Assembly: GCA_963843795.1 (NCBI GenBank)
Contig: CAWJLW010000006.1
Coordinates: forward strand, 2,108,001 to 2,172,000
Length of the DNA: 64,000 bases
Source of the DNA: an uncultured bacterium
GTDB taxonomy: Bacteria > Armatimonadota > Abditibacteriia > Abditibacteriales > Abditibacteriaceae
Direction: 5' to 3'
The notes beneath the pieces are model-generated. The model did not search any database, was not told the origin of the DNA, and was given only the letters and a program-made list of their open reading frames with translations. The position numbers and the translations under genes were made by a program. Below are positions 1,201 to 62,842 of the stretch, piece after piece. Every line of letters begins with the position of its first letter. Positions within the stretch are counted from its first letter, which is position 1.

Positions 1201-1247
1201 GATTGGTAAAAGCGCGCTGCAAGTACTTGCAGCGCACAATTTAATTT

Positions 1248-2831
1248 TCAACGTCCTTCGCGTTTCAATTCGACGGGAACCACGATTGGCGCGGTGGGTG
1301 GCGGCGTTTGTCCGGGATCGGCCCACGCGAAGCGACCGACGGCGCGATCCAGATTGGCGCGCGCGATTTCATAATCGTAAACCGCTTGCGTGGCGCTGGT
1401 TTGCGCGTTGAACAATTGCGTTTGTGCGTTCACGATGTCCAGAATAATGCCCAACCCCAAGCGATATTTTTCGGTCGCTGCGGTGAGATTAATCTGCGCT
1501 TGTTCGACCAGAACGCGCGCGTTGGCAATGCGCTCAATTTGACCGGAAATATCGGTGTAACCAGCTTCGACTTCGGCCTCGGCATCTTTTTCCAACTGTT
1601 CCAGATTTAAACGACTGGCCGCCAGTTCATCTTGCGCGGCACGCTTATCGGCGCGCCGCCCACCGCCATCGAAAATCGGCACATTTAGACCAACGCCAAG
1701 CTGCAAACGTCGGTCGCTCGTCGAGCGCGGATCGAGATTAAAACCCGCACTCGCTGTCACTTGCGGCTTTTGTTCGATGCGCGCCAAAGCTACCGAACTT
1801 TCGCTTTGCTGCACTGCAGCACGGCTCTGCACCAAATCGGGACGTAGATTGCGCGCTTGTTCGAGATATTCATCCAGCGTTTCTAATTGCGGCACTTGGG
1901 GCGGCTCAATTTGCAAAATTTCTGTCGCTGCAGGTAACTCGGCCAGTTCCGGCACTTGAGTTCCCGCTTCGATTTCATCAGGCGTCAAAGGCGTGGATTG
2001 GCTGGGAACTTCATTTATTCCAGCGATAGCCGTAATGCGCGGCGATTGTTCTAATTCCAAAGCCGGGCCGCGTCCCAAACCCAACACATTGCGAAAGTTG
2101 ACCCGCGCTACGGCGAGATTTTTCTGCGCCGTGACTTGATCGAAACGCGCCTGTCGCAGCGCGACTTGCACGCTGAGGATATCGACGCGCGCGACAGTTC
2201 CGGCTGCGATTTGCGCGCGCACCTGTTGCACTTGCTGTTCGGCCAAAGCGACTTGTCCGGCGAACTGCTGGCTCAATTTTTCCTGCCGCAATTGTTCATA
2301 AAACGCTTGGGCGACTTGAAAAGCCAAGCTGCTGCGCGCGCTGCCAAAACTGCCGACCGCGCTCTGACTGCGCGCCTGCGCCGAGCGCACGCGCTGTCGC
2401 GTGCGCCCGCCATCGAACAAGCTCTGCGACACGGCAATGTCGGTCGAAGTTGTGCCACTGGAGCCGCCGCTGATAATACCGCCAGGAACGCCGTTGCTAT
2501 CGGGCAGCACGATGACCGAATTGTTGTTGAGATAATCGTAGCCGACGCGCCCGGTAACTTGCGGCGCATAGCCCGCGCGCGCTGATTTGATACTTTCCTG
2601 CGCACTGGATGCTTGCAACTGCGCGGCGCCCGGCCCGCCTTGCGTGCGCAGCGCGATGCGAATGCTTTCTTCCAGCGAAAGCGGACTGGCAAGTACTTGC
2701 TCATCTGCTGGCGAATCGGTAGAAATTGCAAACGCTGGCGCGCTTTGTGGAGGCGCAGTTTCCTGTGCCTTGGCGTGCAGAGAAACGGCGCATAAAGCGA
2801 GCGTGCACTGCAAAGTCGGTGACAATTTCAT
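1248..2831 (-). CDS. TolC-family outer membrane efflux protein
   Basis: Signal peptide MKLSPTLQCTLALCAVSLHAKA; LSLEESIRIAL, SQSLFDGG, NVPIFDGG, EKYRLGLGIILDIVNAQ, ARANLDRAVG OEP repeats; start trimmed to ATG 2831. Confidence 0.9.
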   Translation of the reverse strand: MKLSPTLQCTLALCAVSLHAKAQETAPPQSAPAFAISTDSPADEQVLASPLSLEESIRIALRTQGGPGAAQLQASSAQESIKSARAGYAPQVTGRVGYDYLNNNSVIVLPDSNGVPGGIISGGSSGTTSTDIAVSQSLFDGGRTRQRVRSAQARSQSAVGSFGSARSSLAFQVAQAFYEQLRQEKLSQQFAGQVALAEQQVQQVRAQIAAGTVARVDILSVQVALRQARFDQVTAQKNLAVARVNFRNVLGLGRGPALELEQSPRITAIAGINEVPSQSTPLTPDEIEAGTQVPELAELPAATEILQIEPPQVPQLETLDEYLEQARNLRPDLVQSRAAVQQSESSVALARIEQKPQVTASAGFNLDPRSTSDRRLQLGVGLNVPIFDGGGRRADKRAAQDELAASRLNLEQLEKDAEAEVEAGYTDISGQIERIANARVLVEQAQINLTAATEKYRLGLGIILDIVNAQTQLFNAQTSATQAVYDYEIARANLDRAVGRFAWADPGQTPPPTAPIVVPVELKREGR

Positions 2832-2863
2832 AGTTGTGTCCTGCTGCAAGTACTTGCAACACT

Positions 2864-4012
2864 TCATTTGGCGATGATGCGACCCAGCCACAATGTGTTA
2901 TCGCCTTTGCCCTGACCGATTAAACCGGCAGCGTCCATCACAAAAATTTGCTTGACCTGATCCAAATCGAGTTGATTGTTATTGTCTTTCGAATCATCGG
3001 AAGGCTTGAAATCGGCGAAATCAGCGTCCACCATTTTGGGCTTCACGTCGCCCGCGACGAGCGTTGTGAAATTGTATTTGCCACCGCTTTCTTCTTCCAG
3101 TTGCACGATGAGAACCGCCGGTTTTTCCGAAGCGATTTGAAAGCTCAACTGCTTTTTGCCAGCTAAAATGCCGGTCGTTAGCGGCTTGATCATGGCGGAG
3201 ATGCGCGCCGGTGCCTGTTGATATTTGGCCTGCAAAGCGTTGTTTTCGGGCAATTCTGCTTTGGCGCGTTCGAGCGCGATGTTGCCCATGCCCAGCCACG
3301 AAACCTGCGGGCTCAAAAACTGATCAATACTGATTGCATCTTTGGCAACTTCGGTTTGCGGAGCTTCGGGCAGCGGCTTGCTGCTGAGCCTCACATCATC
3401 GACCCACAAAACACGCGGCCCGGAAGCGATGTCGAGCAATCGCGCGATTGGGCTATTGACATCGCCCTGCACGAAAAGCTGATTAAAATCCAGAAATGCC
3501 AAAGCATCGATTTTCTCCAGGTCGAGCTTGCCGTTGGCATCTTTGGGATCGTCGGGGCCGGTTTGCAACCGAAAATCTTCCACCTTCAACTCCACGGGCT
3601 GCCAGCGATTACTTACCAGCGAAACCGGCACCACGAAACGTCCGCCGCCCTGCTCGTTGAGCGCAACGATGAGCGGCGTATCGTGATCGGATTTGAGCGT
3701 CATTGTCAACGTTTTCAAGCTGCTGAGTGCACCGGTGGCCATCGGCGCGGCCAGCGCGTTGTAACCACCGTTGGCCACTTCGTAATCGAATTGCAGCGCG
3801 CCGGTTCCGACTTTGGTACCTTCGCGCGCCGGTGAGATTTTCCCCTTTTCGCCAATCACAACCCATTCGCCGACACCGTTTTCAAAGTCGCGTGCGTACA
3901 AAGGTTCCGGTAACTGAGGTGGCTGCGCTTGCGCCTCATGTTCCGAAAATGCGGAAACCGAAATCACGCCACTCAGCAATGTCAATAAAGCCAACTTCCG
4001 ATAATTTTTCAT
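2864..4012 (-). CDS. Secreted protein with two tandem galactose-binding-like carbohydrate-binding domains (CBM11/CIA30-like)
   Basis: Signal peptide; internal duplication (LIVALNEQGGGRF...DANGKLDLEKI / LIVQLEEESGGKY...DNNNQLDLDQV). Confidence 0.6.
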   Translation of the reverse strand: MKNYRKLALLTLLSGVISVSAFSEHEAQAQPPQLPEPLYARDFENGVGEWVVIGEKGKISPAREGTKVGTGALQFDYEVANGGYNALAAPMATGALSSLKTLTMTLKSDHDTPLIVALNEQGGGRFVVPVSLVSNRWQPVELKVEDFRLQTGPDDPKDANGKLDLEKIDALAFLDFNQLFVQGDVNSPIARLLDIASGPRVLWVDDVRLSSKPLPEAPQTEVAKDAISIDQFLSPQVSWLGMGNIALERAKAELPENNALQAKYQQAPARISAMIKPLTTGILAGKKQLSFQIASEKPAVLIVQLEEESGGKYNFTTLVAGDVKPKMVDADFADFKPSDDSKDNNNQLDLDQVKQIFVMDAAGLIGQGKGDNTLWLGRIIAK

Positions 4013-4092
4013 CGTATTCTCCTCTGGTTCACCGTCAACTTTACAGTGCGAATAGTAACCCTACGAAATTCGCTCAACAATGCTGCGTTCGA

Positions 4093-5097
4093 TCAATCGG
4101 CGACTTTGACCAGTTGTTTGCCGATATTCTCGCCGCTAAATAAGCCCAGAAACGCCGCCACAGTGTTTTCAAAACCGTGAGCGATGGCTTCTTTGTCTTG
4201 CAGTTTGCCCGCTTCGAGCCACTGCGCTAACTGCTCGCGGCCTTCTTCAAAACGCTCGACGAAATCTCCGACAATAAAGCCTTGCATCCGCGCGCTTTTG
4301 ACCAGCAACTGGGGTTGGACGCGCGGCCCCAGATCGGGCTTTTCCAGATTATAAAGCGCGATTTGGCCGCAAATCGAAGTGCGCGCGCCGTGATTGATGC
4401 GCGCCATCACGGCATCCGAAATTTCGCCGCCCACGTTATCGAAATACACGTCCACGCCATCCGCGCACGCCGCATCCAAGGCTTTGCCAATATCTTCGCT
4501 GTGATAATTGATCGTCGCATCGAAATTCAACTCGTCGCGCAAATAGTCTGTTTTTTCATCGCTGCCCGCGATGCCAACCACGCGACAGCCTTTGATTTTG
4601 GCGATTTGCCCGACCACGCTGCCGACTGCGCCCGCCGCGCCCGAAACCACAACAGTTTCGCCGTCTTGGGGCTGACAAATCTCCAGCAAGCCGAAATACG
4701 CCGTTAAACCGGTCATGCCCAAAATGCCCAGAGATGTCGAAATCGGCGCGCGTTTGGGATCGACCTTCAAGAGTTCTTTCCCCTTTAAAGCCGCGAAACG
4801 TTGCCAGTTCAACTGCCCCATCACGATGTCACCGCGTTGCAAACCGTCGAATTTCGATTCAATCACTTCGCCCACGCCCGCACCGCCAATAGTTTCGTTT
4901 AAACCAAACGGTGGCACATATGATTTGCCGTCGCTCATCCGGCCTCGCATATACGGATCGACCGATAAATAATGCGCGCGCACCAGAACTTCGCCGTCTT
5001 TAATTGCGGGAATTTCCGCATCCACAACCTTGAAGTTGTCCGGCGTCGGCATACCTTTTGGGCGGCTCACCAAGTGAATCTGCTGATTATTACTCAT
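4093..5097 (-). CDS. NADP-dependent oxidoreductase (MDR, prostaglandin reductase/CurA-YncB-like)
   Basis: LSVDPYMRGRM, GMTGLTAYFGL, VVSGAAGAVGS, YFDNVGG, ENIGKQLV; GGAG RBS before ATG 5097. Confidence 0.92.
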   Translation of the reverse strand: MSNNQQIHLVSRPKGMPTPDNFKVVDAEIPAIKDGEVLVRAHYLSVDPYMRGRMSDGKSYVPPFGLNETIGGAGVGEVIESKFDGLQRGDIVMGQLNWQRFAALKGKELLKVDPKRAPISTSLGILGMTGLTAYFGLLEICQPQDGETVVVSGAAGAVGSVVGQIAKIKGCRVVGIAGSDEKTDYLRDELNFDATINYHSEDIGKALDAACADGVDVYFDNVGGEISDAVMARINHGARTSICGQIALYNLEKPDLGPRVQPQLLVKSARMQGFIVGDFVERFEEGREQLAQWLEAGKLQDKEAIAHGFENTVAAFLGLFSGENIGKQLVKVAD

Positions 5098-5183
5098 ACC
5101 GTTGTCTCCTGTTTTCACTACAAGTACCTGCCTGATACATGCCGCGACCTCTGCAGGAAGTTGCGACGAAGTTATACAGAAGT

Positions 5184-6773
5184 CTATGCTGATGTCGGAA
5201 GTTCAATCATGGCGATGCTCACTTGAACGCCGTTATCAATTCGTGCTAATTCCAGTTGCCAATTGTTGGCTTCACAAATGGCTTGACAAATGGCGAGACC
5301 CAAACCGTTGCCGCCGGTTTGCGAATGGCGCGCGGCGTCGGGTCGATAAAAGGGTTGCAGCCATTTTTCAATGGGTTCGGAGTCGTTGGTCACGTTCGCG
5401 CCCGAGTTATCTACCGATTCCACCGCATTCCACACGCGCAGCTGGGGCATCGCATTTTGCAATTCGACTTTGATCTGGCTATCGGCGGGCGCATATTTAA
5501 CCGCATTCTCTAAGAGGTTGCGCGCGAGCATGGAAGCGTGAGTGGGTGCACACTCGATTGCAACGGCATCATCTGGTGCAAGTACTTGCAGGTCGAGATG
5601 GCGCGCATCAATGGTTTTCAAAAGCGGCGAAAGCGCCAAATCGCACACCTCCACTAAATCTAACATCTCGCGCGGCGGCTGCGCGCTCGCTGCGTGCAGT
5701 TGATTGAGCGTGAGTAAATCACGGACCAGATCAGTAAGGCGCTGAGTTTGAACGCTCGCTTCTTCCAACGTTTGCCGATAAGTTTCGGCATCGCGCGGAC
5801 GGCTCAAAGCCACCTGCAAATGTCCCGAAAGCGCTTGTAGCGGTGTGCGCAATTCGTGCGAGGCGGCGGTGTGAAACTGTTCCTGCGCGCGTGCCGAAGC
5901 ACCGACGGCGCTTAGCAATTCGTTGAGCGTGCCAACTAATTCGCGCATTTCAGCATCGGGCGAAGGCGACTGCAAATTAATCTGTGGCGCATTATGTAAC
6001 CCCGCGCTGCGCGCGATGTGACGCGCCTGACCCGATAGCCGATGAATTGGTGATAACGTGCGTCCGACCAAAGCCCACGCGCCCAGTCCCGCCGCTACCG
6101 CCACGACCAGACAAAGCAGCCACAAGTTGCGCGCTTGATCGTTGAGCGTGCGCTCGACGCGTTCCCAAGGCACACCAACCGTAACTTCAAGCGGCCCGAA
6201 AGCGAAATAGGTCGCGCGCCACGCCGCGCTGTTAGTTCTTACCGGCAGTTCGCCTTCGATCACGCGCGTACCGCCGCTGGTAATTTCAACGATCTGCCCC
6301 TTGTCCAAAGCCTTGCCATCTTCACTCCTGAGCCACCGCTGGCCCATCAGCGCGCGCCGATCGGGTGAAAGCGGCGGCGCGCTGCTGAAATTATCCACAA
6401 CTTCTGACCCCGAACGACGACGCGGACGACGTGAATCTTCGTCGCCATTTTCGCTGCTTCGATTTTCATTATCGTTGCTTCGCGGCGGGCGATTGCGCGA
6501 ACGCGGTTGCAGCCACACGACAACATCGGATTCGATGCGGCGCGTTGAAGAACGCGTATTGCGGGCAGCGAGCAAACGCACTATATCGCGCGCATCGGTT
6601 CCAGTTGTTAACTGAGCACGCACATCACGCGATGCGCTACGCAAAATAATTTGCGCGCGATACTCCGAGGCACGCCGCGCGTTCCACACGAGCGCCATCC
6701 CAATCATCGCCATCACGATGACAATCGCCATCACAAAGCCCGAAGTCATGCGCGCTCGAATCGAATGAAACAT
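5184..6773 (-). CDS. Membrane sensor histidine kinase (HAMP-HisKA-HATPase)
   Basis: Two TM segments, ASHELRTPL H-box, NLLENAVKY N-box, GGNGLGLAI G2 box; downstream of a response regulator. Confidence 0.92.
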   Translation of the reverse strand: MFHSIRARMTSGFVMAIVIVMAMIGMALVWNARRASEYRAQIILRSASRDVRAQLTTGTDARDIVRLLAARNTRSSTRRIESDVVVWLQPRSRNRPPRSNDNENRSSENGDEDSRRPRRRSGSEVVDNFSSAPPLSPDRRALMGQRWLRSEDGKALDKGQIVEITSGGTRVIEGELPVRTNSAAWRATYFAFGPLEVTVGVPWERVERTLNDQARNLWLLCLVVAVAAGLGAWALVGRTLSPIHRLSGQARHIARSAGLHNAPQINLQSPSPDAEMRELVGTLNELLSAVGASARAQEQFHTAASHELRTPLQALSGHLQVALSRPRDAETYRQTLEEASVQTQRLTDLVRDLLTLNQLHAASAQPPREMLDLVEVCDLALSPLLKTIDARHLDLQVLAPDDAVAIECAPTHASMLARNLLENAVKYAPADSQIKVELQNAMPQLRVWNAVESVDNSGANVTNDSEPIEKWLQPFYRPDAARHSQTGGNGLGLAICQAICEANNWQLELARIDNGVQVSIAMIELPTSA

Positions 6774-6806
6774 TGGTGAGAAAAGTGAAGTTAAGAAGGT
6801 GGAATG

Positions 6807-6870
6807 GCGAAAATGAAAGCTAAAAGTGCGCTGCAAGTACTTGCAGCGCACTTTTAGCTTTCATTTTCGC
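6807..6870. repeat. 64-bp perfect palindrome centred on GCAAGTACTTGC
   Basis: GCGAAAATGAAAGCTAAAAGTGCGCTGCAAGT|ACTTGCAGCGCACTTTTAGCTTTCATTTTCGC; right arm overlaps the end of the response regulator CDS. Confidence 0.95.
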
Positions 6871-7867: not shown

Positions 7868-7998
7868 GTCTCGCGCATTCTTTCTTCGCATAATTTCAAC
7901 AGTTGATCGAACAAGCAGTTGCACACAGCAAGTACTTGCAGCAGGCTTCGCGCCGCCTCTTTGCGCAAAGTGTCACGATTAGCCACACTACAGGAGCT

Positions 7999-13815: not shown

Positions 13816-13907
13816 GCCGCATTTTGGCGCCGCTCTGCCCTGCAAGTACTTGCAAGTACTTGCAGGGTTTGTTTTAACCGTTATTTCGTTTTTGGAGAAT
13901 TAAATTT

Positions 13908-18762: not shown

Positions 18763-18828
18763 CTGATTTGACGCACCAAAAAAGCCGCTGCAAGTACTTG
18801 CAGCGGCTTTTTTGGTGCGTCAAATCAG
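18763..18828. repeat. 66-bp perfect palindrome centred on the 12-mer, between convergent pyrH and J-domain genes (likely bidirectional terminator)
   Basis: CTGATTTGACGCACCAAAAAAGCCGCTGCAAGT|ACTTGCAGCGGCTTTTTTGGTGCGTCAAATCAG. Confidence 0.95.
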
Positions 18829-19794: not shown

Positions 19795-21189
19795 CTACAT
19801 CTCAAAACTGTCCATCATACCGCTATACATTCCCGTGTATTGATCGACGACCGACATACCGATTTTGATAGCCACCAGCAGAAACACCAAAATCGCCATG
19901 ACTTTGACCGCTTGCTTAATCGCAGTTTCGGCGTCGCTTTCCAAAAAATCGGCGACTTTATCTAACTGCTCATCAATATTGCCAGTTTGCTCACCAATAG
20001 CTAGCATTTGCATGGCAACGGGCGGAAATTGTCGCGTGGCTTGGAGCGCGCCAGTGAGAGAATTGCCGTTTTGAACTTGCGGAATCACCCGCTCGATGCT
20101 ATCGCCTATGGCTACGTTATCGCACGCATCAGAAGAAAGCTGCAGCGCGCGATGCGGCGCCATGCCTGCCGACCAGGTCGCACTCAAGGCACGACAAAAT
20201 TTGGCTGTTGCCAATCCGCGTGCGACTTTGCCACCAATGGGCAGCACTAATTTAATGCTGTCGATGGCTCGCTTCCAGCTTTTGGCGTGACCGAGCAAAG
20301 GTGCCACATAAGCCGCAACTTTCCATACCGCCCACGCAACCGCAATAATGATGATTTGCGTGCGCATGCTGATGATCGCAGGGCCAAGACCAAAAAGAAC
20401 CAGTGGAACGACAGCGGGAACGAAAATCGATGCGCCCAGCAACAATTTCGGATACCAAGTTTCGCGTTTGATGGTTTGCTCGAGATGGTAATCGTTTTCG
20501 CAGTATTTTGACAGGCGCGCACAAGTTCGGTCGAGCGTGCCCGAACCTTCGCCCGCCTCAATGATGCCGGTTTGCAATTCGCTGAACAAACCGGGATACA
20601 ACCTCATGCTTTGGCTCCACGGTGTTCCCATTAAGGCACGCTTGCTCATTTCGCCACTCGCCCGTCGCAAAGCCGCGCTGCTATCGTGCTGCGAGGCAAC
20701 TTCCAGCGCCTGACCGACACTACTGCCTGCATGCAACATCGCGTGCATCTGACGGAAAAACAACGATTTCTGCTTGTTGTCGGCGCGCGCCCACCAGTCT
20801 GTTTCTGATTTGGTTTTGCCCGCGTCGGTTTTCGGCACATACGCCACGCCACCATTTTGCGGAGGATTCATATGGGAAGGGCGTGCATTAGGACGTGGCA
20901 AAGCGCCACTGGCAACCGTTGCAGCGCCCTCCCTATCGGATATAAACGTGGCTTGTGGAGCGTAAATTGGCGCGGCCTGCATTGGCGGCTCGATTGTCGG
21001 GGTGGCAACGGTTGCCGTTGCTCCATTTGGCGTGGCATTTAAATGTGCCTTGGGAGCGAGAGCAATGCGGGTGACCGTGAGTTCACGTTCGCTCAGGGTG
21101 TGCAGCAAAGCGTTCTGATCGTCGGCATTGCGCGTGCCGCGCACCGGCCGCCCGGCGCGGTCGCGGGCTTCAAAAGCGAATAAGGGCAT
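19795..21189 (-). CDS. Type II secretion system F / PilC-family inner membrane platform protein
   Basis: MPLFAFEARDRAG, FFRQMHAMLHAG, AGEGSGTLD, IGEQTGNIDEQLDKVADF. Confidence 0.9.
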   Translation of the reverse strand: MPLFAFEARDRAGRPVRGTRNADDQNALLHTLSERELTVTRIALAPKAHLNATPNGATATVATPTIEPPMQAAPIYAPQATFISDREGAATVASGALPRPNARPSHMNPPQNGGVAYVPKTDAGKTKSETDWWARADNKQKSLFFRQMHAMLHAGSSVGQALEVASQHDSSAALRRASGEMSKRALMGTPWSQSMRLYPGLFSELQTGIIEAGEGSGTLDRTCARLSKYCENDYHLEQTIKRETWYPKLLLGASIFVPAVVPLVLFGLGPAIISMRTQIIIIAVAWAVWKVAAYVAPLLGHAKSWKRAIDSIKLVLPIGGKVARGLATAKFCRALSATWSAGMAPHRALQLSSDACDNVAIGDSIERVIPQVQNGNSLTGALQATRQFPPVAMQMLAIGEQTGNIDEQLDKVADFLESDAETAIKQAVKVMAILVFLLVAIKIGMSVVDQYTGMYSGMMDSFEM

Positions 21190-22279: not shown

Positions 22280-23029
22280 TCAATCAAACTTCACATCGCC
22301 CGCAAGCACTTGCCTCACACCATTAGTCGTTGTCACCAAAAGCGCGCCACCGTCGTCGACGCCGCGCAACACGCCGTAAAACTTCTCGTTTTCCTGCACG
22401 ATTTGCACGACCTCGCCGCGCCCGTAACAGCGCGTTTCCCAGGCAGCGCGCACGTTTTCCCAATTGCCATTTTGCAGCTGCGTGCAAGTACTTGCCAGGT
22501 GTTTTAAACACGTATTTTCGACTGCGCGCAAGCTCAATTCGCGCTCACATTCCAACCGCAAAGAAGAGGCCGGAAAAATCGGACGTTCGGGCAATTGTCC
22601 GTTTGCGTGCAGCACATTAATGCCGATGCCGACAATCAGAAAATCGACGCGCCCGTTTTTCAGTTGCGATTCGCACAGAATGCCGCCGACTTTCCGATTA
22701 TGAACCAGAATGTCGTTTGGCCATTTCACCTGCGCATTTAACCCACAAACTTCCTCAATCGCGTGCGCCATCGCGACTGCCGCGCCCAAAGTTGCGTGTG
22801 CAACTGTTGGAATTTCGCGTACGACCATCGAAAACAGCAAGCCGCAATTTGGTGGCGAAAACCAATCGCGCCCGCGCCGTCCGCGCCCCGCGCTTTGTTC
22901 GCTCGCGATAACTACCGCTCCGGTTGGCGCATCGTTTTCGGCCCACTCGCGCGCAGCATCATTGGTGGAATCGATGATTTCGTAGCGACGCAAAGGCGCG
23001 CCGTTTGGTGTGGTTTCGCTGGTAAACAT
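22280..23029 (-). CDS. birA: Biotin--[acetyl-CoA-carboxylase] ligase (no HTH)
   Basis: IDSTN, EQSAGRGRRGRDW, KWPNDI, KVGGILCE, VGIGINV. Confidence 0.95.
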   Translation of the reverse strand: MFTSETTPNGAPLRRYEIIDSTNDAAREWAENDAPTGAVVIASEQSAGRGRRGRDWFSPPNCGLLFSMVVREIPTVAHATLGAAVAMAHAIEEVCGLNAQVKWPNDILVHNRKVGGILCESQLKNGRVDFLIVGIGINVLHANGQLPERPIFPASSLRLECERELSLRAVENTCLKHLASTCTQLQNGNWENVRAAWETRCYGRGEVVQIVQENEKFYGVLRGVDDGGALLVTTTNGVRQVLAGDVKFD

Positions 23030-27597: not shown

Positions 27598-29101
27598 TTA
27601 ATAAGTCGAGGCTTTGGCGACTTCACGTTCAGCGTGACCATTGGAAGTTACCAGTTCTTCGTCGCCCGGTTTCATCCAGCACAGATTCAAACATTTCGCA
27701 GCGTTGGCTTCGTCCAGGCGACCAATCGGCTGCGAGTGCGGCGCGTGGTGCAACATTTCGGCGTCGGTTTCGGCTTCTTTGGCGATCAGTTTCATCGCAT
27801 CGCAAAACGCATCGAGCGTGGCTTTGGTTTCGGTTTCGGTCGGCTCGATCATCATCGATTCTTTGACAATGGTCGGAAAATAAACCGTCGGCGCGTGAAA
27901 ACCGTAATCGGGCAAACGCTTGGCGATGTCCCACGCCGTCACGCCGTATTTGCTTTTCAAAGCGCTCGCCGAAAGCACGCATTCGTGCTTGCACAAGTTG
28001 TCATTCGCCGTGCCATAAGTGTCTTTCAAACGCGCCAGCACATAGTTGGCCGCCAGAACCGCGTTTTCGGAAATTTCTTTCAAGCCGCTATCGCCGTGAC
28101 GCAAGATGTAAGTCAGCGCGCGCAGAATGACGCCGCTGTTGCCGCGAAAACGCGTGCAGTTGGCCGACCGAATCGGGACGGTCGAAATCCATCACGTATT
28201 TGCCATCGCGCTCGACGACGTGCGGCGTGGGCAGAAACGGTTCGAGAATATCGCGCACCGCGACCGGCCCCGCACCCGGCCCGCCGCCGCCGTGTGGCGT
28301 CGAGAAAGTTTTGTGAACGTTGAAATGCATCACGTCGATGCCGGTGTCGCCCGGTTTGACCGCGCCCAGAATCGCGTTCATGTTCGCGCCGTCCATGTAA
28401 ACCAGCGCGCCCTGTTCGTGCGCCAATTGGCACAAAGTTTCGATTTCGCGCTCGAACACGCCCAGCGTGTTCGGGTTGGTAATCATCACCGCAGCCACAT
28501 CCGGCCCTAAAGCTTCGCGCATCGCTTCGATATCAACGCAACCGTTTTCATCCGAATGCACTTGCGTCACGTCGAATCCGCAGCGCGCCGCGCTCGCCGG
28601 ATTGGTGCCGTGCGCCGAATCGGGAACCACAATGCGCGTGCGCGTCGCACCATCTCCGCGCGACTGATGATAAGCGCGAATCATCAGTAATCCGCAAAAT
28701 TCGCCCTGCGCTCCGGCCAAAGGCTGCACTGTTGCGGCGTGCAAACCGGCGATTTTCGCCAAGACATTTTGCGCGCGGAACAACACTTCGAGCCAGCCTT
28801 GCGTCGAATCGTCACTTTGCAAAGGGTGCACAGTGGCGAAACCGGGCATTCCAGCCACGACTTCGTTGATTTTCGGGTTGTACTTCATCGTGCACGAACC
28901 GAGCGGATAAAATTCGGTGTCGATGCTGAAATTTAGCTGCGACAATTTGGTGTAATGACGCACCACGGAATGTTCGTCCAAAGCGGGCAGCGGCAAATCG
29001 TCGCGCATCGCAAAATCGAAAGCGGCTTCCGGCACGTCGAGAGGCGGTAAGTAATCGTTGTATTGGCCGGGCGAGGAAAGCTCGAAAAGAATCGGTTGCA
29101 T
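27598..29101 (-). CDS. gcvPB: Glycine dehydrogenase subunit 2, interrupted by a +1 frameshift near 28147-28150
   Basis: YPLGSCTMKYNP, SAHGTNPASA, HFNVHKTFSTPHGGGGPG, then NAVLAANY, GFHAPT, MIEPTETE in the second frame. Confidence 0.93.
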
Positions 29102-33230: not shown

Positions 33231-33268
33231 GCAAAAGCGCCCTGCAAGTACTTGCAGGGCGCTTTTGC
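33231..33268. terminator. 38-bp palindrome with 12-mer core between convergent mdh and DUF1559 genes
   Basis: GCAAAAGCGCCCTGCAAGT|ACTTGCAGGGCGCTTTTGC. Confidence 0.85.
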
Positions 33269-39884: not shown

Positions 39885-39985
39885 ATTTAGGTGCTATTTA
39901 AGGTGTAACGCATTGACAAGCAAAGAAAAACCTCCCGCAAGTACTTGCAGCAGGTACTTGCGGGAGGTTTTGTTGATAACTGAAG

Positions 39986-43802: not shown

Positions 43803-43840
43803 ATAAAAGCGCGCTGCAAGTACTTGCAGCGCGCTTTTAT
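43803..43840. terminator. 38-bp palindrome with 12-mer core between convergent genes
   Basis: ATAAAAGCGCGCTGCAAGT|ACTTGCAGCGCGCTTTTAT. Confidence 0.85.
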
Positions 43841-48569: not shown

Positions 48570-48757
48570 ATTTCTAATCCCGTTGTGGAACGCTGTGTGG
48601 AAGCAGGCAGTTTAGCCGATTTTTCGGTGCGCTTCCGGCATCACAATGCGCGTTTAATCGTTGCCAAATCGAAGCACATAACAAAACGCGCCCTGCAAGT
48701 ACTTGCGCAAGTACTTGCAGGGCGCAATTGTCATTATTCAATGTTCTAAAATCTCAA

Positions 48758-52210: not shown

Positions 52211-53257
52211 TCAATTCTTCTCGTTGTTTTTGCCACGCTTTTTTCCGTGTTTGGCGGGTTTGGCCTTTTTGCCCAAAATATCGTTTGGGACATTAATTTC
52301 GACGTGCGGAGTAATGACCGTATTGATAGCAGGCGTGCCGCACGCGACGCGGCTGGTCTCGTTTTTGGATATATCCGTCCAATCTTCTCTGTAGTCGGGC
52401 GAAGCCACATCTTCGCCATTGTAAGTTCCGCTAACCATAATGCGAAACTCTGTGCCCAATGCGCCCGCAGTCGCAGTCGGCGTAGAAACATCAAATTTAG
52501 AACCGTGGTGGACGCTGTACACGACATCTCCTAATGCTTGACGCACTACCGTATAAAGCGTCAATTCGTTGTTCATGACAAAAGATTGCAACACAGTGAC
52601 ATCGCTGCCCGCGCTCAAATCGCAGGTCGAACCATCAGCGAAACGAATCAAAGCTGAACCACCGGTACGAATGCGGTCGGCCCCGTGTAATTCCATCCCA
52701 TCGACGCCCGATATCACTCCCGAACCTGGCCGCTCGACCGAGGTCGCATTGGTGCTCACCAGAATCGCGGGTTTGACAGCGAAATTATGGGTTTGAATGC
52801 CAGCAAAGGCTTGAAAACCTCGCCCGGATTCTTCGTGAAAAGGGCACATAATCGTTGGCACTTCGCCAATGGCCGGTAGCACTTTTTCAAAACGCTTGTC
52901 GTTACGCACCGGACGCTGGATGTAAAAATCGCCGTAACCATCGCTTTGGGGTTCGGGATCGTCAGGACAATGCAACATCGTAGTCGAAACATATTTGCCC
53001 TCAGCTAACTCGCGCAAATATATCGGATAATGTCCTTTTTCCTGCTTGAAAGCATCCAGAGCAACTGCCAGAGATTTCAAATTATTGTCGCATTGAGCCT
53101 GCCGCGACGATTCACCAACGCGATTGAAAGCCCCAAAACTCAACGTCGCCAATAAACTGATAATTGCGATAACCACCAAAATCTCCACCAGAGTGAAGCC
53201 GCGCCGATGCGCACTAAAAGAGTTTTTTAAACCGGGAAGATAGGGATGTCTATGCAT
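52211..53257 (-). CDS. Prepilin N-methylation protein fused to a FecR-like domain
   Basis: [50 protein letters not shown]. Confidence 0.8.
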   Translation of the reverse strand: MHRHPYLPGLKNSFSAHRRGFTLVEILVVIAIISLLATLSFGAFNRVGESSRQAQCDNNLKSLAVALDAFKQEKGHYPIYLRELAEGKYVSTTMLHCPDDPEPQSDGYGDFYIQRPVRNDKRFEKVLPAIGEVPTIMCPFHEESGRGFQAFAGIQTHNFAVKPAILVSTNATSVERPGSGVISGVDGMELHGADRIRTGGSALIRFADGSTCDLSAGSDVTVLQSFVMNNELTLYTVVRQALGDVVYSVHHGSKFDVSTPTATAGALGTEFRIMVSGTYNGEDVASPDYREDWTDISKNETSRVACGTPAINTVITPHVEINVPNDILGKKAKPAKHGKKRGKNNEKN

Positions 53258-56804: not shown

Positions 56805-57770
56805 TTATTTTTCATCGTTCAACAAGCCTTCATCGCGCAGCCAATCGACGAAATTGGCCAAACCCTGCTCGACTGCGATTTGCGGTTGATAATTCAACAT
56901 TTGTTGCGCTTTAGAAATATCGGCGAAAGTTTCAAACGGTTCGGAATTGGGCGCGGGCACGTTTTGCAAATTAGCTTTTTTGCCCAGCAAATTTTCCAGA
57001 ATCTGCACAAACTGCAAATTTTCAACCGGGCGACCGCAGCCCAAATTCCAAATTTCCCAACTAAATTCCGCATTCAGCATCGCTATCAGGCCGCGCACGA
57101 TATCGTCGATATAAGTCCAGTCACGCTTTAATTTGCCGCCATCGAAAAGCGTAAGTGTTTCGCCACGCTGAATCTGCATCGTCCATTGCCACGGCATCAT
57201 GTCAGGCCGACCGTGAGGTCCATAAACGTTGAAAAAGCGCGCGATGGCAATCGGCATTTGATAGGAAGAATTGAACGCGTGCGCCATGATTTCCATCGCC
57301 CGTTTGGACGCGGGATAAGGCGCGAGCGGATGCACGGCGGGCGCGTCTTCGCGAAACGGCATCGGCGTGTCGCGCCCGTAAACCGAGCCGGTGGAAGCCA
57401 AAATACAGCGCACGTTGCCACGACTGCGCGCTGCATCCAGTAAATTCATCGTTCCCTGCACATTCACTTCGCCATACAAAAGCGGATGCTGAACCGAATA
57501 ACGCACCGCTGCCATCGCCGCGAGATGCACAACCGCTTCAATCGGCACGCTTTGAAATAGTTCGCGAAGGCCAGCTGCATCGCGCAAATCGAGCTGCTGA
57601 AAAGTGAAGTTCTTAAAATGAAGCAAATCGTGCAGATGGCGATCTTTGTGAGCACGGTCGTAATAAGGATCAAAGTTATCTAATCCGACGACGTGTTCGC
57701 CGCGCCCGACTAATTCGCGCGCCAGACGACTGCCAACAAACCCCGCCACGCCCGTAATGAGAATGCTCAT
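56805..57770 (-). CDS. NAD-dependent epimerase (UDP-glucuronate 4-epimerase-like)
   Basis: ITGVAGFVGS, HLAAMAAVRYS, YPASK, RFFNVYGPHGRPDM, RDWTYIDDI. Confidence 0.92.
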   Translation of the reverse strand: MSILITGVAGFVGSRLARELVGRGEHVVGLDNFDPYYDRAHKDRHLHDLLHFKNFTFQQLDLRDAAGLRELFQSVPIEAVVHLAAMAAVRYSVQHPLLYGEVNVQGTMNLLDAARSRGNVRCILASTGSVYGRDTPMPFREDAPAVHPLAPYPASKRAMEIMAHAFNSSYQMPIAIARFFNVYGPHGRPDMMPWQWTMQIQRGETLTLFDGGKLKRDWTYIDDIVRGLIAMLNAEFSWEIWNLGCGRPVENLQFVQILENLLGKKANLQNVPAPNSEPFETFADISKAQQMLNYQPQIAVEQGLANFVDWLRDEGLLNDEK

Positions 57771-57941
57771 AAATTGATTTCCTGAAAATGCCGCTGCAAG
57801 TACTTGCAGCGCAGTTTGCACCGATTTTTGTAGGCACAGAAGTCGCAGCGATTCCAGCGCCCTACCGCTTTGACATCTCTTGTCAATTTGACACCTTCTG
57901 TCAATATGCGGCGGCAAATTTAATTTCAATGGAGTTTGAAT

Positions 57942-58445
57942 ATGTCTCAAGTCACGATGCAGGGCAACCCTTTACAAACCAACGGCGAATTGCCCACAGT
58001 GGGCCAGAGTGCGCCTGATTTTGAACTGACCGCATCCGATATGTCACAAGTGAAGCTCAGCGATTCAGCGGGTAAGGTTCGCATTTTATCGATTGTGCCT
58101 TCAGTTGATACGGGCGTGTGCTCTCTGCAAACCGCGCGCTTTGACCAGGAACTGCAAAAAATGGCCGGCGAGGTTGTGGGATATTCGATTAGCGTGGATA
58201 CACCGTTTGCGCTCAAGCGCTGGTTGGGCGAAGAAGACGCTGAAAAAATCAAGGCCTTGTCGGATTTCAAAGATCATCAAGCTCTGCGTGATTATGGCGT
58301 TTATATCGAAGAAGCGGGCATCGCCGCGCGTTCGGTAGTGATTGTTGATAGTGATGGAAAAGTCGCTTACACGCAACTGGTGCCGGAAATCGCTCAGGAG
58401 CCAAACTACGACGAAGTTTTGTCCAAAGTGCGCGAATTGATTTAA
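57942..58445 (+). CDS. tpx: Thiol peroxidase
   Basis: VGQSAPDF, SIVPSVDTGVCSLQT, ISVDTPFA, ARSV, EPNYD. Confidence 0.93.
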   Translation: MSQVTMQGNPLQTNGELPTVGQSAPDFELTASDMSQVKLSDSAGKVRILSIVPSVDTGVCSLQTARFDQELQKMAGEVVGYSISVDTPFALKRWLGEEDAEKIKALSDFKDHQALRDYGVYIEEAGIAARSVVIVDSDGKVAYTQLVPEIAQEPNYDEVLSKVRELI

Positions 58446-58490
58446 GTCTTTGGCTTGAGCAAGTACTTGCCGAGCGTTTTATCTGATGTC

Positions 58491-58526
58491 AAAGTTCCCA
58501 GCGGTCAATGCCGTTGGGAACTTTTT
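58491..58526 (+). terminator. Intrinsic terminator after tpx
   Basis: AAAGTTCCCAGCGG-tcaatg-CCGTTGGGAACTTT followed by T-run. Confidence 0.75.
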
Positions 58527-58570
58527 GTTGACCGATCTTTTCTTTTTATTGAGCCGAATTTTTCAACATT

Positions 58571-59383
58571 ATGACTTACTCACTTTTTGATTTATCCGAC
58601 CGCACCGCGATTGTCATCGGTGGAACCGGTGCTTTGGGCGGAGCGATGGCGAGCGCTTTGGCCGCAGCGGGCGCGCACGTCGTGGTTGTCGGACGCGACA
58701 GCGAACGCGGTGAGGAACGCGTCACCCAAATTATCGACGACGGAGGGCAAGCGACTTTTCATGAGGCCGACGCGATGCAGGTCGGAGATTTGGAGCGCGT
58801 GCGCGACGAAGTTCTGGAAATGCGACCTTCTTTAGATATTCTAGTCAATGCGGCGGGCGGCAATCGACCCGAAGCCACGCTTCCGCCGGGCGCGGAATTC
58901 GGAGATTTATCGGTTGAAGCGTGGGGCGATGTTTTCGATTTGAATTTGGTCGGCGGTGCGCTGTTGCCGTGCCAGATTTTCGGGACGGCGATGGTTGCGG
59001 GCGGCGCGGGTTCGATTATCAATATCGCGTCGATGTCGGGCATGATTCCGCTTTCGCGCGTCGTGGCTTATAGCGCGGCCAAAGCTGCGGTTTTGAATTT
59101 GACACAATTTTTGGCGCGCGAATGGGCGTTGCGCGGCGTACGCGTCAATGCGATTAGTCCGGGCTTTTTCCCCGCCGACCAGAATCGCGCGCTGTTGTTC
59201 AACGAAGACGGTTCCTATTCACAGCGCGGCGGGCAGATTATCGCGCATACGCCGATGGCACGTTTTGGAAACGCGGAAGAATTGGCCGGAGCCGTCATCT
59301 GGTTGGCCAGCGAACGTGCTTCGAGCTTTGTCACCGGACAAAACATCGTGGTCGATGGCGGTTTTAGTTCGATGACAATTTAA
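58571..59383 (+). CDS. SDR oxidoreductase (D-mannonate oxidoreductase-like)
   Basis: GGTGALG, LVNAAGGN, YSAAK, RVNAISPGFF, VDGGFS. Confidence 0.9.
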   Translation: MTYSLFDLSDRTAIVIGGTGALGGAMASALAAAGAHVVVVGRDSERGEERVTQIIDDGGQATFHEADAMQVGDLERVRDEVLEMRPSLDILVNAAGGNRPEATLPPGAEFGDLSVEAWGDVFDLNLVGGALLPCQIFGTAMVAGGAGSIINIASMSGMIPLSRVVAYSAAKAAVLNLTQFLAREWALRGVRVNAISPGFFPADQNRALLFNEDGSYSQRGGQIIAHTPMARFGNAEELAGAVIWLASERASSFVTGQNIVVDGGFSSMTI

Positions 59384-59439
59384 ATTTCGCGCCTTGCAAG
59401 TACTTGCAAGGCGCGAAATTGGCAAGGCGCTTTCTCAAT

Positions 59440-60018
59440 ATGAAAATTGAAGCCCAACCGGGCGATTTATTTTTGTTCACCAAAGCGCGCGGCATGAACA
59501 AACTGATTACGTGGTTTTCGCAATCGCCATGGTATCATGTCGCGATTTACGCGGGTGGCCCATTTGTGGTCGAAGCGCGCCCCCGCGGCGTGGTGCGACG
59601 CGATTTGCGCGGGCCAGATGGCGATAAAGATTTCCAAGTCGTGCCCGCTCCATGCAAGCGCTCGGTTGCCGTGCAAGCGCTGCATAACGCTGAATCACAT
59701 ATCGGCAAAGGCTACGATCCGCTTAACGTAATAGCGTTGGTTTTGGATCGTGCTTTGTGGGCCAAAATTCCCTCGATTAATAATGAACGCTGGTCGTGTG
59801 GCGAATTGGTCACCGATGCGTTTCGCAACGCCGGTTTCGACCCGCTGCCCGGGATGGAAGCTGAAGATGTGCTACCTTCGGATTTCGCGCGCTATCTGCC
59901 GCCCGATAGCCCGGTTTACCACGGCGCACATTCCGGTCATTGGGTACGCGATTTTCAATGCGAATGGCCCGGCCCATCGTGGGAAAAGTTTCGCCATGGA
60001 CAATCTCACCAAGGCTGA
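59440..60018 (+). CDS. Permuted papain-like NlpC/P60 (YiiX/YebB-like) protein
   Basis: QPGDL, WYHVAIY, VVEA, GKGYD, WSCGELV (His before Cys). Confidence 0.8.
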   Translation: MKIEAQPGDLFLFTKARGMNKLITWFSQSPWYHVAIYAGGPFVVEARPRGVVRRDLRGPDGDKDFQVVPAPCKRSVAVQALHNAESHIGKGYDPLNVIALVLDRALWAKIPSINNERWSCGELVTDAFRNAGFDPLPGMEAEDVLPSDFARYLPPDSPVYHGAHSGHWVRDFQCEWPGPSWEKFRHGQSHQG

Positions 60019-60316
60019 CGGTTTGCATCCAAACCGTGCGCGTTGCCAGTTGTGCGAACGCGCAGTTTCAAACCTGACTTTGCATCATCTGGTGCCGCGT
60101 TCGCGCGGCAAGAAGCGCGGACACAAAGTTCACGAGTTGCCGACCGCGTGGCTTTGTCCCGCCTGCCATCGGCAATTGCACGTTTTGTTTTCCAACCGTG
60201 AATTGGAAGCTCAGGGCGCAACTATCGAACAACTGCGCCGCGACCCGCGCGTCCAAAAATTTTTGCATTGGGTTCGCAAACAAGACCCCGACAAACAAAT
60301 CCGCGTGCGCCGCTAA
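59996..60316 (+). CDS. Small HNH-family nuclease-like protein
   Basis: [25 protein letters not shown]. Confidence 0.8.
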
Positions 60317-60359
60317 AACCCGAAACCCCGACTATCAAAAATCGCTACACTTTATGCGT

Positions 60360-60929
60360 ATGATTTTGATGATCGACAATTTCGATTCGTTCACCTATAA
60401 CTTAGTCCAATATTTGGGCGAAATGGGTTTGGAACTGCAAGTGCGCCGCAATGATGACATTACCTTGGATGAAATCGCGCAACTCAAGCCCTCGCACCTG
60501 ATTATTTCGCCTGGCCCGTGTTCGCCTAACGAAGCCGGCGTTTCGGTCGCGTCCATCGAGCGCTTCGCGGGTGAATTGCCAATTTTGGGAGTGTGCTTGG
60601 GCCATCAAGCCATCGGACAAGCGTTCGGTGGCAACATCGTGCGGGCGCAATCACTGATGCACGGCAAAACCAGCCCAATTCACCACGACAATCGCGGCGT
60701 TTTCAGTAACCTGCCTTCACCTTTCGATGCCACGCGCTATCATTCTCTGGTCATTGAACGCTCGACATTTCCCGATTGCTTGGAAATCAGTGCGGAAACC
60801 GAAGACGGCGAAATCATGGGAGTGCGCCACAAAACCCTGCCACTCGAAGGCGTGCAATTCCACCCCGAAAGCATTCTCACTGGCGAACATGGCAAGACGA
60901 TTTTGCGCAACTTTATCGAGAGATTCTAA
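60360..60929 (+). CDS. trpG: Anthranilate/aminodeoxychorismate synthase glutamine amidotransferase component II
   Basis: [34 protein letters not shown] (could equally be pabA). Confidence 0.93.
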
Positions 60930-60934
60930 GACCA

Positions 60935-61000
60935 AGAGATTGTAAGACCAAAATGCAGGCTGCAAGTACTTGCAGCCTGCATTTTGGTCTTACAATCTCT
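60935..61000. repeat. 66-bp perfect palindrome centred on the 12-mer between convergent trpG and polX
   Basis: AGAGATTGTAAGACCAAAATGCAGGCTGCAAGT|ACTTGCAGCCTGCATTTTGGTCTTACAATCTCT. Confidence 0.95.
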
Positions 61001-61011
61001 CGCATCTTCAT

Positions 61012-62709
61012 TTAACGCTGCGCTTTAGTACGTTGCAGCCACGCTTTTAATTCATCCGCCGATTTACAATTCAGAACATTGGCTTCTTCGCACCACGCGC
61101 GGCGTGCAGTCGTCACGCCGAGTTCGATGTTGCCCAACATCCGCGTCGAGTGTGCGTCGGTGTCGATGCATAGCAAAACGCCCGCATCACGCGCTAATCG
61201 GGCGTTTTCTGCACTGAGGTCGAGGCGCTGGCTGGCATTGATTTCCAGCGCGGTATCGTGTTCGCGCGCGGCGGCGATGAGGGCTTCGACATCGACATCG
61301 TAACCGGGGCGACCGCCCAAAATCCGGCCAGTTGGATGCGCGATAAGATCAACAGCGGGATGAGAAATTGCGCGCACCATGCGCGCGGTTTGTTCTTCGC
61401 GCGATAGGTTGAAAGCGGAATGCACACTGCCAATGACGAAATCTAATTCGTGCAAAATTTCGTCGTCCAAATCTAAAGTGCCATCGCGCAAAATGTCGCA
61501 TTCGACGCCGCGCAGAATAAGCAAATTGGGAAACTGCTGGCGTGCGGCTTCAATTTCCTGCGCTTGTTCACGCAAACGCGCTGCGGTGAGGCCATTAGTC
61601 ATGGCCAGAGCTTTGGAATGGTCGGTGACGGCGAAATACTCGTAGCCACGCGCGCTCATCACTTCAGCCATTTGTGCAATCGTCGCGACCCCATCGCTCC
61701 AGGTTGAATGCGTGTGCAAATCGCCGCGAATGTCGGAAATTTCCAGCAATCGGGGCAGCGTGTTTTGGGTCGCAGCTTGCCATTCGCCGCGCCCTTCGCG
61801 CAGTTCGGGCACGATGAAAGGCACTTGCAGGCTTGCGTAAATTTCCTCTTCGTCCGAACTTTCGGCCAGCAACAAGCCCCACGCCAGACCAAGTTCAACT
61901 GCACGATTTTCGGCCTGCTCCAAATGCGCGGGCGAACCGGTCATCGAAAGGCGTGATGCGCCAAAGTCTGCCGGGCCGCTGCAACGCAGCAGCACTTCGA
62001 AACCGCCACGCACTGTGACGCGCGCGGCACTCATAGTGCGTTCAACGACATCAAGCACGACCGGCAAAGTCGTGAACACATCTAAAGCGCTCCGAAAATT
62101 GTCGCAGCGTGCCAGGAGTTCAATCGAAGGTACGGTTTCACAGCCGCGCCGCACATCGCCAACGATTTCAACGCGCTCCATTATGGGCGCTTGTCGCAGC
62201 AGATCGCATAAAGAATTTGCCAGCGCAAGCGCTTCGCCAAGGGGCAGTTCCTGCGTGGTTTGCTCCAAGCGCTCGATACCTTGCGCGATGTTTTGTAGCG
62301 CTTTGGGTCCGAAACCGGAAACGTCTTTCAACGCGCCGCTTTCGATGGCTTGTTTTAAAGCCGCTACTGAACTGATGTTTTGCTCGCGATACAGTTGCGC
62401 GACGCGCTTGGGCCCAAGGCCGGGTACTCGCAAAACATCGATCAGCCCGGGCGGATATTCTTCGCGCAAACGTTCGAGATAACGCATCTGGCCCGTAGCG
62501 ACATATTCGCGGATTTTGGCGGCGGTTGCTTCGCCAATGCCTTCGAGTTCGCGCAACGATTTTTCTTCGACATCTTCAATCGGTTCGGGATAAGCGGCAA
62601 CGGCTTCGGCGGCGCGCTTGTAGGCGCGAATTTTAAACGGGTTTTCGCCCGCCACTTCCATCAGGGCGGCAATTTCATCGAAGTGTGCGACGATGCGTGC
62701 ATTTTCCAT
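61012..62709 (-). CDS. polX: DNA polymerase X family / PHP 3'-5' exonuclease
   Basis: ENPFKIRAY, VPGLGPKR HhH, PELRE, PHP motifs DLHTHSTWSDG, TDHS, IAHPTGR, DTDAH. Confidence 0.93.
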   Translation of the reverse strand: MENARIVAHFDEIAALMEVAGENPFKIRAYKRAAEAVAAYPEPIEDVEEKSLRELEGIGEATAAKIREYVATGQMRYLERLREEYPPGLIDVLRVPGLGPKRVAQLYREQNISSVAALKQAIESGALKDVSGFGPKALQNIAQGIERLEQTTQELPLGEALALANSLCDLLRQAPIMERVEIVGDVRRGCETVPSIELLARCDNFRSALDVFTTLPVVLDVVERTMSAARVTVRGGFEVLLRCSGPADFGASRLSMTGSPAHLEQAENRAVELGLAWGLLLAESSDEEEIYASLQVPFIVPELREGRGEWQAATQNTLPRLLEISDIRGDLHTHSTWSDGVATIAQMAEVMSARGYEYFAVTDHSKALAMTNGLTAARLREQAQEIEAARQQFPNLLILRGVECDILRDGTLDLDDEILHELDFVIGSVHSAFNLSREEQTARMVRAISHPAVDLIAHPTGRILGGRPGYDVDVEALIAAAREHDTALEINASQRLDLSAENARLARDAGVLLCIDTDAHSTRMLGNIELGVTTARRAWCEEANVLNCKSADELKAWLQRTKAQR

Positions 62710-62842
62710 ATTTCATCAGCGACATTAAATTGAAATTACGCCCCTGCAAGTACTTGCAGAGCCGATTTGGCACGCACGCACCGCAAAAGCCACGCCCAAC
62801 AAACGCGCTGCAGTGCAAGTACTTGCCAGTTGAATGTTAGTG

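Follow-up and report, generated by a model that had tools for sequence, protein, structure and literature searches.

In the literature consulted, only two bacterial families are recorded as having sequence-specific DNA uptake. According to it, the DUS of Neisseriaceae and the USS of Pasteurellaceae are words of 9-13 bp that occur in thousands of copies, arise by point mutation and form species dialects with a core (PMC3630211, PMC7811141, bioRxiv 10.1101/2025.10.24.684340), at a density of roughly one per kb for USS (PMC7811141). They are also described as scarce in recently acquired DNA, in rRNA and in genes under constraint, fairly evenly spaced and used in terminators (PMC3630211, PMC7811141). 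All DUS dialects of the Neisseriaceae share one core (PMC3630211). In H. influenzae, a second USS within 100 bp gives no rise in uptake. The HIP1 palindrome of cyanobacteria, whose function is still open, reaches 500-2,500 copies per Mb, with alternate HIPs in some species (PMC4390886, PMC5861425, PMC13756078), and shows a quasi-periodicity of 18-94 kb (PMC5861425); its one-off variants avoid the central positions. The SlmA-binding sequence of E. coli is present at 52 sites with a gap at the terminus (PMC3020112). A search of the literature outside subscription journals found no paper with the 12-mer described below, with an uptake sequence in an Armatimonad or with an overrepresented AGTACT palindrome.

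The window, the whole 64-kb stretch of DNA that was analysed and that named homologues assign to the Abditibacteriaceae, contains exactly 48 copies of the 12-bp palindrome GCAAGTACTTGC (1219..62826), and none of 100 dinucleotide shuffles contained any. The sequence-only reading had counted about 48, mostly at gene junctions, and had named seven one-base variants; all seven were found in place, four more occur at 22302, 32606, 36885 and 51893, and 38 of the 48 copies are intergenic and 10 coding according to our own gene calls. The genome of 4.3 Mb contains 2,567 copies (597 per Mb, about one per 1.7 kb), against 0.45 expected from an order-4 Markov background, and all 11 contigs carry them, with 47-83 copies per 100 kb of the 3.6-Mb contig when its first bin is excepted. 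Outside this assembly, the inner 10-mer reaches about 900-970 per Mb in metagenome contigs that belong to at least two other species, at about 70% nucleotide identity. Confinement to one contig or an assembly artefact, the refutation that had been considered, was thus not found, and the observation is confirmed as real and genome-wide. Sequencing reads cover the word only at a contig edge and were left out of this argument. A 16-mer scan over all species genomes returned at least 36 single matches in unrelated taxa, which tell us little, the viral sequences scanned gave no doublets and six single matches without enrichment, and local clusters of the 12-mer marked no telling gene.

With gene positions from our own gene caller, the window copies fall at 29 tandem, 5 convergent and 4 divergent junctions besides the 10 in coding sequence. 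Between convergent genes, the copy at 33244 forms the tip of a two-way terminator-like hairpin (33231..33268) with a GUAC loop, a 17-bp stem and a U tract (-33 kcal/mol, z -8.4, arm 13), and the copy at 43816 has the same position in the hairpin at 43803..43840 (-28.3 kcal/mol, z -7.2). Three copies are centred in long perfect palindromes: one of 66 bp with 27-bp arms (18763..18828, copy at 18790), one of 64 bp (6807..6870, copy at 6833), whose right arm takes in the last codons of a gene ending at 6854, and one of 66 bp between convergent genes (60935..61000, copy at 60962). Doublets occur as an overlapping pair with 10-bp spacing (13842..13863) and a tandem pair with 12-bp spacing (48695..48718), both at hairpin tips, and as an exact copy followed at 13 bp by the commonest one-off variant (39937..39961). 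The copy at 7928..7939, in a divergent promoter region, has neither arms nor a hairpin (z -0.13), which indicates that the word is not only a terminator. Genome-wide, 383 of 548 predicted terminator-like hairpins contain the 12-mer, as their tip, and so do 60% of the convergent junctions in their sequence. These numbers are what one would expect if selection on transcripts had spread a terminator or RNA-loop motif, but the word also occurs in 750 coding copies and at 239 of 470 divergent junctions, where it generally lacks arms, and these arm-less copies contradict a terminator motif as the sole cause; Rfam gave no match in the window. We therefore find this explanation scarcely credible. Predicted use in terminators, overlapping inverted pairs included, is a feature shared with DUS and USS.

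REP and REPIN elements are intergenic palindromes that form hairpins and doublets, with a conserved element of 20-40 bp and a full RAYT transposase. Transposase-driven spread of a REP-like or miniature mobile palindrome, another option of the earlier reading, would be in line with the intergenic share of 70%, the hairpins and doublets, an identical 32-mer at 45 copies and the inverted pairs of 24-40 bp that make up the elements of two relatives (G006 and G016). However, nothing is shared beyond about 10 flanking bases, and 2,563 of the 2,567 contexts are distinct at ±14 bases; the copies of another relative (G007) are isolated singles, and the sole Y1 transposase, a fragment of 131 aa, does not reach the RAYT cut-off. 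When coding sites were aligned with orthologues, 40 of 48 alignments were gap-free near the site, as were 31 of 33 with closer relatives, which largely refutes a mobile repeat for the coding copies. Gaps near the site in 8 of the 48 distant alignments, against a background of 4.6%, do favour insertion for a minority. The coding copies thus appear to have originated mostly by point mutation in place and in register, as DUS and USS do, and transposase-driven spread is very improbable.

The word is one of several dialects. A genome of the same genus has no copy of the exact 12-mer, which makes it a species-level word, and 11 of the 27 Abditibacteriaceae genomes carry a word of this kind; this upholds the proposal of a lineage-specific HIP- or uptake-sequence-like repeat system. 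Seven of the 11 use species-specific dialects of an AGTAC core, three use CAGCCACG and one uses CCACAAAAAATGA, the latter two not palindromic; non-palindromic words occur in G006, G007, G016, G018 and G020. As in DUS and USS, dialects are arranged round a core, but here three unrelated cores are found in one family, and the word described here is a perfect palindrome, of a sequence and phylum unrelated to those systems and with a core different from the DUS core of PMC3630211. In four relatives the non-palindromic words occur equally on both strands, with inverted pairs. Chi and KOPS are strand-biased signals and were rejected for these words, since both strands are about equal within 20-kb stretches. 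In G006, one half is still perfect in 12 of the 20 sites that have 3-5 mismatches, against 4-21% for random placement, a result that suggests that the minimal signal there is one-sided. Sites were shared with G001 in 4 of 18 cases (control 0 of 13), and with closer relatives in 10 of 33, no excess over a same-tripeptide control (10 of 34). The other 16 genomes have no visible tag in samples of 17-110 kb, yet all have ComEC.

The copies also avoid one another over about 2 kb. Up to 150 bp from an intergenic copy, coding copies number 0.07 per kb, and at 2-3 kb they reach 0.49 per kb, a climb that three control words do not show, and their median distance to an intergenic copy is 1,068 bp against 686 in the null (99% range 610-767). 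In genes tagged at one end their positions are shifted towards the opposite end (n=196, mean 0.56, p=0.003). Two 26-kb IS/restriction islands and the 23S rRNA gene (one gene only) contain no copies, and coding copies are least frequent in the most codon-typical genes (0.098 against 0.15-0.33 per kb). Rarity in acquired DNA, rRNA and constrained genes and a relatively even spacing are again shared with DUS and USS, and the genome-wide density is close to that of USS.

By analogy with those systems, we consider it somewhat probable that the 12-mer is a self-DNA tag maintained through biased transformation, in a third lineage. A sequence-specific protein would read the dialect of the species in the course of natural transformation, either at uptake or shortly afterwards. 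Fragments bearing the word would then recombine more often, so that point mutations towards it would spread at tolerant sites by molecular drive, and the spread would halt at about one site per 1-2 kb, where further sites are useless. A reader of altered specificity would lead to a genome rewritten into a new dialect. Because the dialect is self-complementary, it would have been recruited to form the tips of intrinsic terminators, with arms that grow by local copying. ComEC, a ComEA-like protein, DprA, pilus ATPases and secretins are all present. Of the four options in the sequence-only reading the uptake signal fits best, but the PilC and prepilins cited for it do not distinguish tagged from untagged genomes, between which the pilus operon, ComEC and ComEA show no difference in content. 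The PilC/T2SSF-family gene (19795..21189, minus strand; PF00482, E 1.6e-43) and the prepilin-like protein with a FecR domain (52211..53257, minus strand; pI 6.1, not basic) are genomic context only. None of 34 prepilin-like proteins has a mature part with a pI above 8.7, i.e. there is no strongly basic candidate, and ComP_DUS (PF16732) was found in none of five genomes, though the control was also silent. A PilB and PilT tree of the 14 genomes with both genes in the stretch examined gave no firm position for the genome that holds the window, and the AGTAC dialects may have arisen once or repeatedly. Counting against a tag are further the missing receptor match, the three unrelated cores, the 16 genomes without a visible tag that nevertheless have ComEC, the lack of excess site sharing with closer relatives, the helical phasing described below and the fact that we found no published demonstration of competence for any member of the Abditibacteriaceae.

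Close pairs of the 12-mer show helical phasing with a period of 10.5 bp (R=0.345, n=161; maximum of the jitter null 0.22), which differs from DUS and USS and contrasts with the absence of any gain in uptake from a nearby second USS. For intergenic pairs at distances of 16-70 bp, R is 0.48 (n=104), and the in-phase half holds 64 of 79 pairs, the phase being fitted from the same data, and G001 has nine pairs near multiples of 10. Phasing of close intergenic pairs suggests cooperative protein binding. The word could accordingly mark sites for an intracellular multivalent DNA-binding protein with a role in chromosome organisation or processing (looping, compaction, or a signal for replication or repair), and selection for roughly even coverage would maintain these sites. 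The even spacing fits this too, as do full palindromes that far exceed half-sites even in genes. However, phasing was seen neither in coding pairs (n=33) nor in the pooled other dialects (n=34, R=0.15), no MutH match was found, and the best period between 8 and 120 kb (34 kb, p=0.09, by a simpler method than that of PMC5861425) was not significant. Site-by-site selection would also hardly account for thousands of sites being completely rewritten from one sister species to another, or for the word being absent from most relatives. We regard such binding sites as unlikely, though deserving of some weight. SlmA nucleoid occlusion in particular is rejected: the SlmA-binding sequence is also a 12-bp palindrome with the same central AGTACT, but there are 2,567 copies here instead of 52, and no gap at the terminus.

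The palindrome resembles HIP1 and its alternates in density, in spread by substitution, in having alternates in some species and in the presence of an orphan methyltransferase. The genome has a single PF01555 gene (C6:2517365-2518135), a beta-class adenine methyltransferase related to M.RsrI and M.BceJIV, and no C5 or Dam-type enzyme was found; a single-copy orthologue is present in all seven AGTAC-tagged genomes, in neighbourhoods that are not conserved. If this enzyme marked GTAC, methylation-dependent repair or recombination could write and keep the flanks, and HIP1, which also propagates by substitution, increases transformation in its methylated form (PMC13756078). Among 48 short palindromes, only GTAC (median ratio 0.05) and CTAG (0.10) are much rarer in enzyme-bearing genomes, so that this family-wide orphan enzyme may target GTAC, but CTAG fits equally as a candidate target, and the enzyme-less genomes come mostly from a single clade, G016 (0.03) and G002 (0.22) being the exceptions. 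The methyltransferase does not track the word: an intact copy is present in 10 untagged genomes, none was found in G016, which is tagged, and the words of four tagged genomes lack GTAC although the recognition loops of the enzyme are nearly invariant. The GTAC positions have no deficit of one-off variants (60 and 80, where positions 2 and 3 have 40 and 61), so that the central bases have no extra protection as they do in HIP1, which is moreover 8 bp instead of 12 bp long and has a periodicity over tens of kb for which no significant counterpart was seen here. Some relatives also use words that are not palindromes, a further difference from HIP1. Nor would a local ratchet predict avoidance over kilobases. 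Homologues on plasmids, at most 36% identical, added no specificity, and a PabI-family search gave no match, though its control was silent. The methylation-coupled HIP suggested earlier is thus weakened, as a stand-alone methyltransferase also occurs in untagged genomes, although its presence in all seven AGTAC genomes is retained in its favour; we rate it as rather improbable.

Returning to the self-DNA tag, the unrelated non-palindromic cores, the spacing and the phasing of the word are new here. Tentatively, and with more doubt than the tag itself, one reader may have switched between unrelated words (palindromic AGTACT types, CAGCCACG and CCACAAAAAATGA), binding duplex DNA at multiple sites along one face of the helix and rewriting thousands of sites and hundreds of proteins per switch; this would be an independent third uptake-signal system that bridges DUS/USS and HIP1. 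With both palindromic and non-palindromic dialects, a third lineage would offer a natural comparison for finding the reader, and tagged and untagged relatives with the same competence genes a test of molecular drive against selection. The dialects could also be used as species barcodes for contig binning and phage assignment in this little-studied group.

Lastly, the word has reshaped the proteome. The 10 coding copies in the window read QVLA (7), KYL (2) and ASTC (1), and QVLA peptides number 562 genome-wide, against 43 for permutations. Protein identity at tagged segments is 35% against 57% for whole genes, i.e. the segments are variable ones. A DNA signal here dictates the choice of amino acids in hundreds of proteins: 499 of the 562 QVLA peptides are written in the word's own codons, where 0.4% would be expected.

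The 12-bp palindrome GCAAGTACTTGC, with AGTACT at its centre, had been described in the sequence-only reading as highly iterated in the window, and it occurs there in 48 exact copies against none in 100 shuffles. The genome-wide 12-mer count against a Markov background bore this out: the source genome (G000, counted as 4.30 Mb in 11 contigs and 92% complete) contains 2,567 copies where 0.45 were expected. Its assignment to Abditibacteriaceae is inferred from one gene, with named homologues in A. utsteinense (77%) and in an Abditibacteriaceae bin. The word is by a wide margin the top 12-mer of this genome, and its one-base variants number 506, with about 10 expected. Density on the main contig is 47–83 copies per 100 kb, the first bin excepted, and is lower on small contigs where mobile genes abound. 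C3, a 40-kb contig with phage-tail-like genes, has just three copies. The two largest word-free gaps, of 26 kb each, correspond to an IS cluster and a type I restriction/IS island; the 23S rRNA gene contains no copy and the terminus region shows no gap. No account of the word was found in the literature searched, most subscription papers lying outside that search.

Our own gene caller predicted 3,481 genes in G000 (85% coding), which places 1,797 copies in intergenic regions, 750 in coding regions and 20 at edges or contig ends, although a few may be misclassed because some called genes are split by frameshifts. The word is present at 282 of 472 convergent, 1,108 of 2,528 tandem and 239 of 470 divergent junctions. 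Coding copies avoid intergenic ones: their density climbs from 0.07 per kb within 150 bp to 0.49 at 2–3 kb and is 0.38 beyond; the effect also holds inside genes, and three control words showed no comparable rise. Perfect arms continue for 10 bp or more outside the 12-mer at 437 copies, compared with 3.3 when left and right flanks were shuffled, and 383 of the 548 predicted terminator-like hairpins contain the word. Three example copies are predicted to fold into hairpins whose loop consists of the four central bases; an arm-less example has no predicted fold. The ±14 flanking bases are distinct for 2,563 of 2,567 copies, and therefore no larger element surrounds the word; an Rfam search of the window gave no match. 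The persistence of perfect palindromes longer than 60 bp suggests that the arms are often copied locally. Among perfect palindromes whose arms reach 10 bp or more, 717 have the word at their centre and 85 do not, several of the latter being loop-less terminators or doublets. Four perfect palindromes of up to 58 bp, centred on an alternating AT run, cluster at C4:10140-10330, on a contig that bears restriction and mobile genes.

Codon alignments with relatives showed no nearby gap at 40 of 48 coding sites and a gap at 8, against a background of 4.6%; with closer metagenomic relatives, 31 of 33 sites had none. As judged from these alignments, coding copies mostly arose in place, without insertion. 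They fall within variable segments of proteins, and the proteome of G000 bears the imprint of the word: the peptides QVLA, ASTC and KYLQ occur 562, 132 and 107 times (permutation means 43, 3.8 and 5.6), and the word's own codons encode 499 of the 562 QVLA peptides. At 27598-29101 of the window, a glycine-cleavage gene is seemingly split over two frames and forms one reading frame in a relative; such splits affect about 7 of 369 compared genes.

Exact GCAAGTACTTGC is found 0–3 times in each of 40 relatives and not at all in the same-genus genome. Several relatives possess a hyper-abundant word of their own (a dialect): CAAAGTACTTTG in G001, (TC)GAGTACTC(GA) in G009, G012, G015 and G019 (2,650–4,077 copies) and, in G006, AGTACGGTCGA, which in many cases has a partial inverted partner beside it. 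Hyper-abundance of RAGTACTY is confined to 6 of 301 genomes of the phylum, all six Abditibacteriaceae; the remaining 295 have at most 396 copies. A core word unrelated to the AGTACT type, CAGCCACG, occurs 2,676–3,503 times in G007, G016 and G018 (stretches L159-L161, L165-L166 and L184-L186) vs 125–529 in the other 24 family genomes, and CCACAAAAAATGA 2,035 times in G020 (3.2 Mb; L173-L175) vs 0–17. Both are non-palindromic and lie on both strands; CAGCCACG forms singles in G007 and singles plus inverted pairs with 15–25-base loops in G016, and CCACAAAAAATGA forms singles and inverted pairs in G020. A few contigs from G042, G024 and G041 bear small clusters of CCACAAAAAATGA. Summing AGTAC-type, CAGCCACG and CCACAAAAAATGA genomes, tags are present in 11 of the 27 family genomes; the other 16 showed no dispersed word in samples of 17–110 kb, each covering part of the genome only. 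GCAAGTACTTGC also occurs on some metagenome contigs whose genes are phage- or plasmid-like. Five metagenome contigs (L146, L149, L148, L132 and L152) do not match G000 at the nucleotide level; L146 and L149, with three and five copies, encode products judged by eye as phage- or plasmid-like (tape-measure-like, helicase, primase-like). In L056 (G017 C44:100001-120000) a longer repeat recurs at least 11 times, with short ORFs lying between its copies, and by eye the stretch resembles an integron-type cassette array.

The word matches, point by point, the properties of Pasteurellaceae uptake sequences (USS) listed in PMC7811141. Taken together, the observations fit a self-DNA tag kept by biased transformation, a reading that we consider slightly more probable than not; transformation favouring tagged DNA would then drive the word. 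The same paper describes overlapping inverted USS pairs as terminators, a possible model for a palindromic dialect. The system would work in the manner of DUS/USS without belonging to them, as sequence, taxon and palindromy differ (background literature: PMC4390886, bioRxiv 2025.10.24.684340, PMC3630211, PMC5861425, PMC1939737, PMC11380664 and PMC3020112). ComEC is encoded in 27 of 27 family genomes, and a ComEA-like protein, DprA, pilus ATPases and secretins were also found. Across 21 loci, pilus operon gene content does not differ between tagged and untagged genomes. In the type IV pilus operon of G000 (C6:385799-402501; L176) several frameshifts coincide with single extra bases that contigs of another read set (low depth) lack, and are therefore probably assembly errors. 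Of the 34 prepilin-like genes in G000, the majority share a near-identical N-terminus of the DUF1559 type.

No ComP-like receptor turned up in a profile search of five genomes, in which the control was silent as well, or among 34 prepilin-like proteins judged by charge, and this lends some weight to a different role, as sites for an intracellular DNA-binding protein. Helical phasing of close pairs also points that way: pairs 16–130 bp apart concentrate at 20–21, 29–30, 39–41, 50–51 and 60–63 bp, with phasing at 10.5 bp (R=0.345, n=161, jitter null maximum 0.22; seven periods tried) that resides in intergenic pairs less than 70 bp apart. Nine pairs in G001 hint at phasing; none was seen among coding pairs or in the other dialects pooled (n=34). 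We regard such a binder as unlikely to explain the word.

A methylation route resembling cyanobacterial HIP1 seems improbable. The candidate enzyme is an orphan beta-class DNA methyltransferase of 256 aa (G000 C6:2517365-2518135, minus strand; L099:5365-6135), with M.RsrI and M.BceJIV as closest solved relatives. It is present in 22 of 27 family genomes (broken in 2 of the 22), and has no conserved gene neighbours; it does not depend on a tag, nor does its presence predict one. Many relatives that have the enzyme but bear no tag, or one of another type, almost lack GTAC and CTAG, and this GTAC scarcity hints at GTAC as a candidate target. The HIP1-like and self-DNA-tag readings may merge, since PMC13756078 proposes HIP1 itself as an uptake watermark. 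Observed/expected GTAC was 0.00–0.06 in samples of G005, G007, G008, G011, G013, G014, G016, G018, G024, G041 and G042, and CTAG was likewise mostly scarce in these eleven. RAGTACTY has likewise been lost in other families of the phylum.
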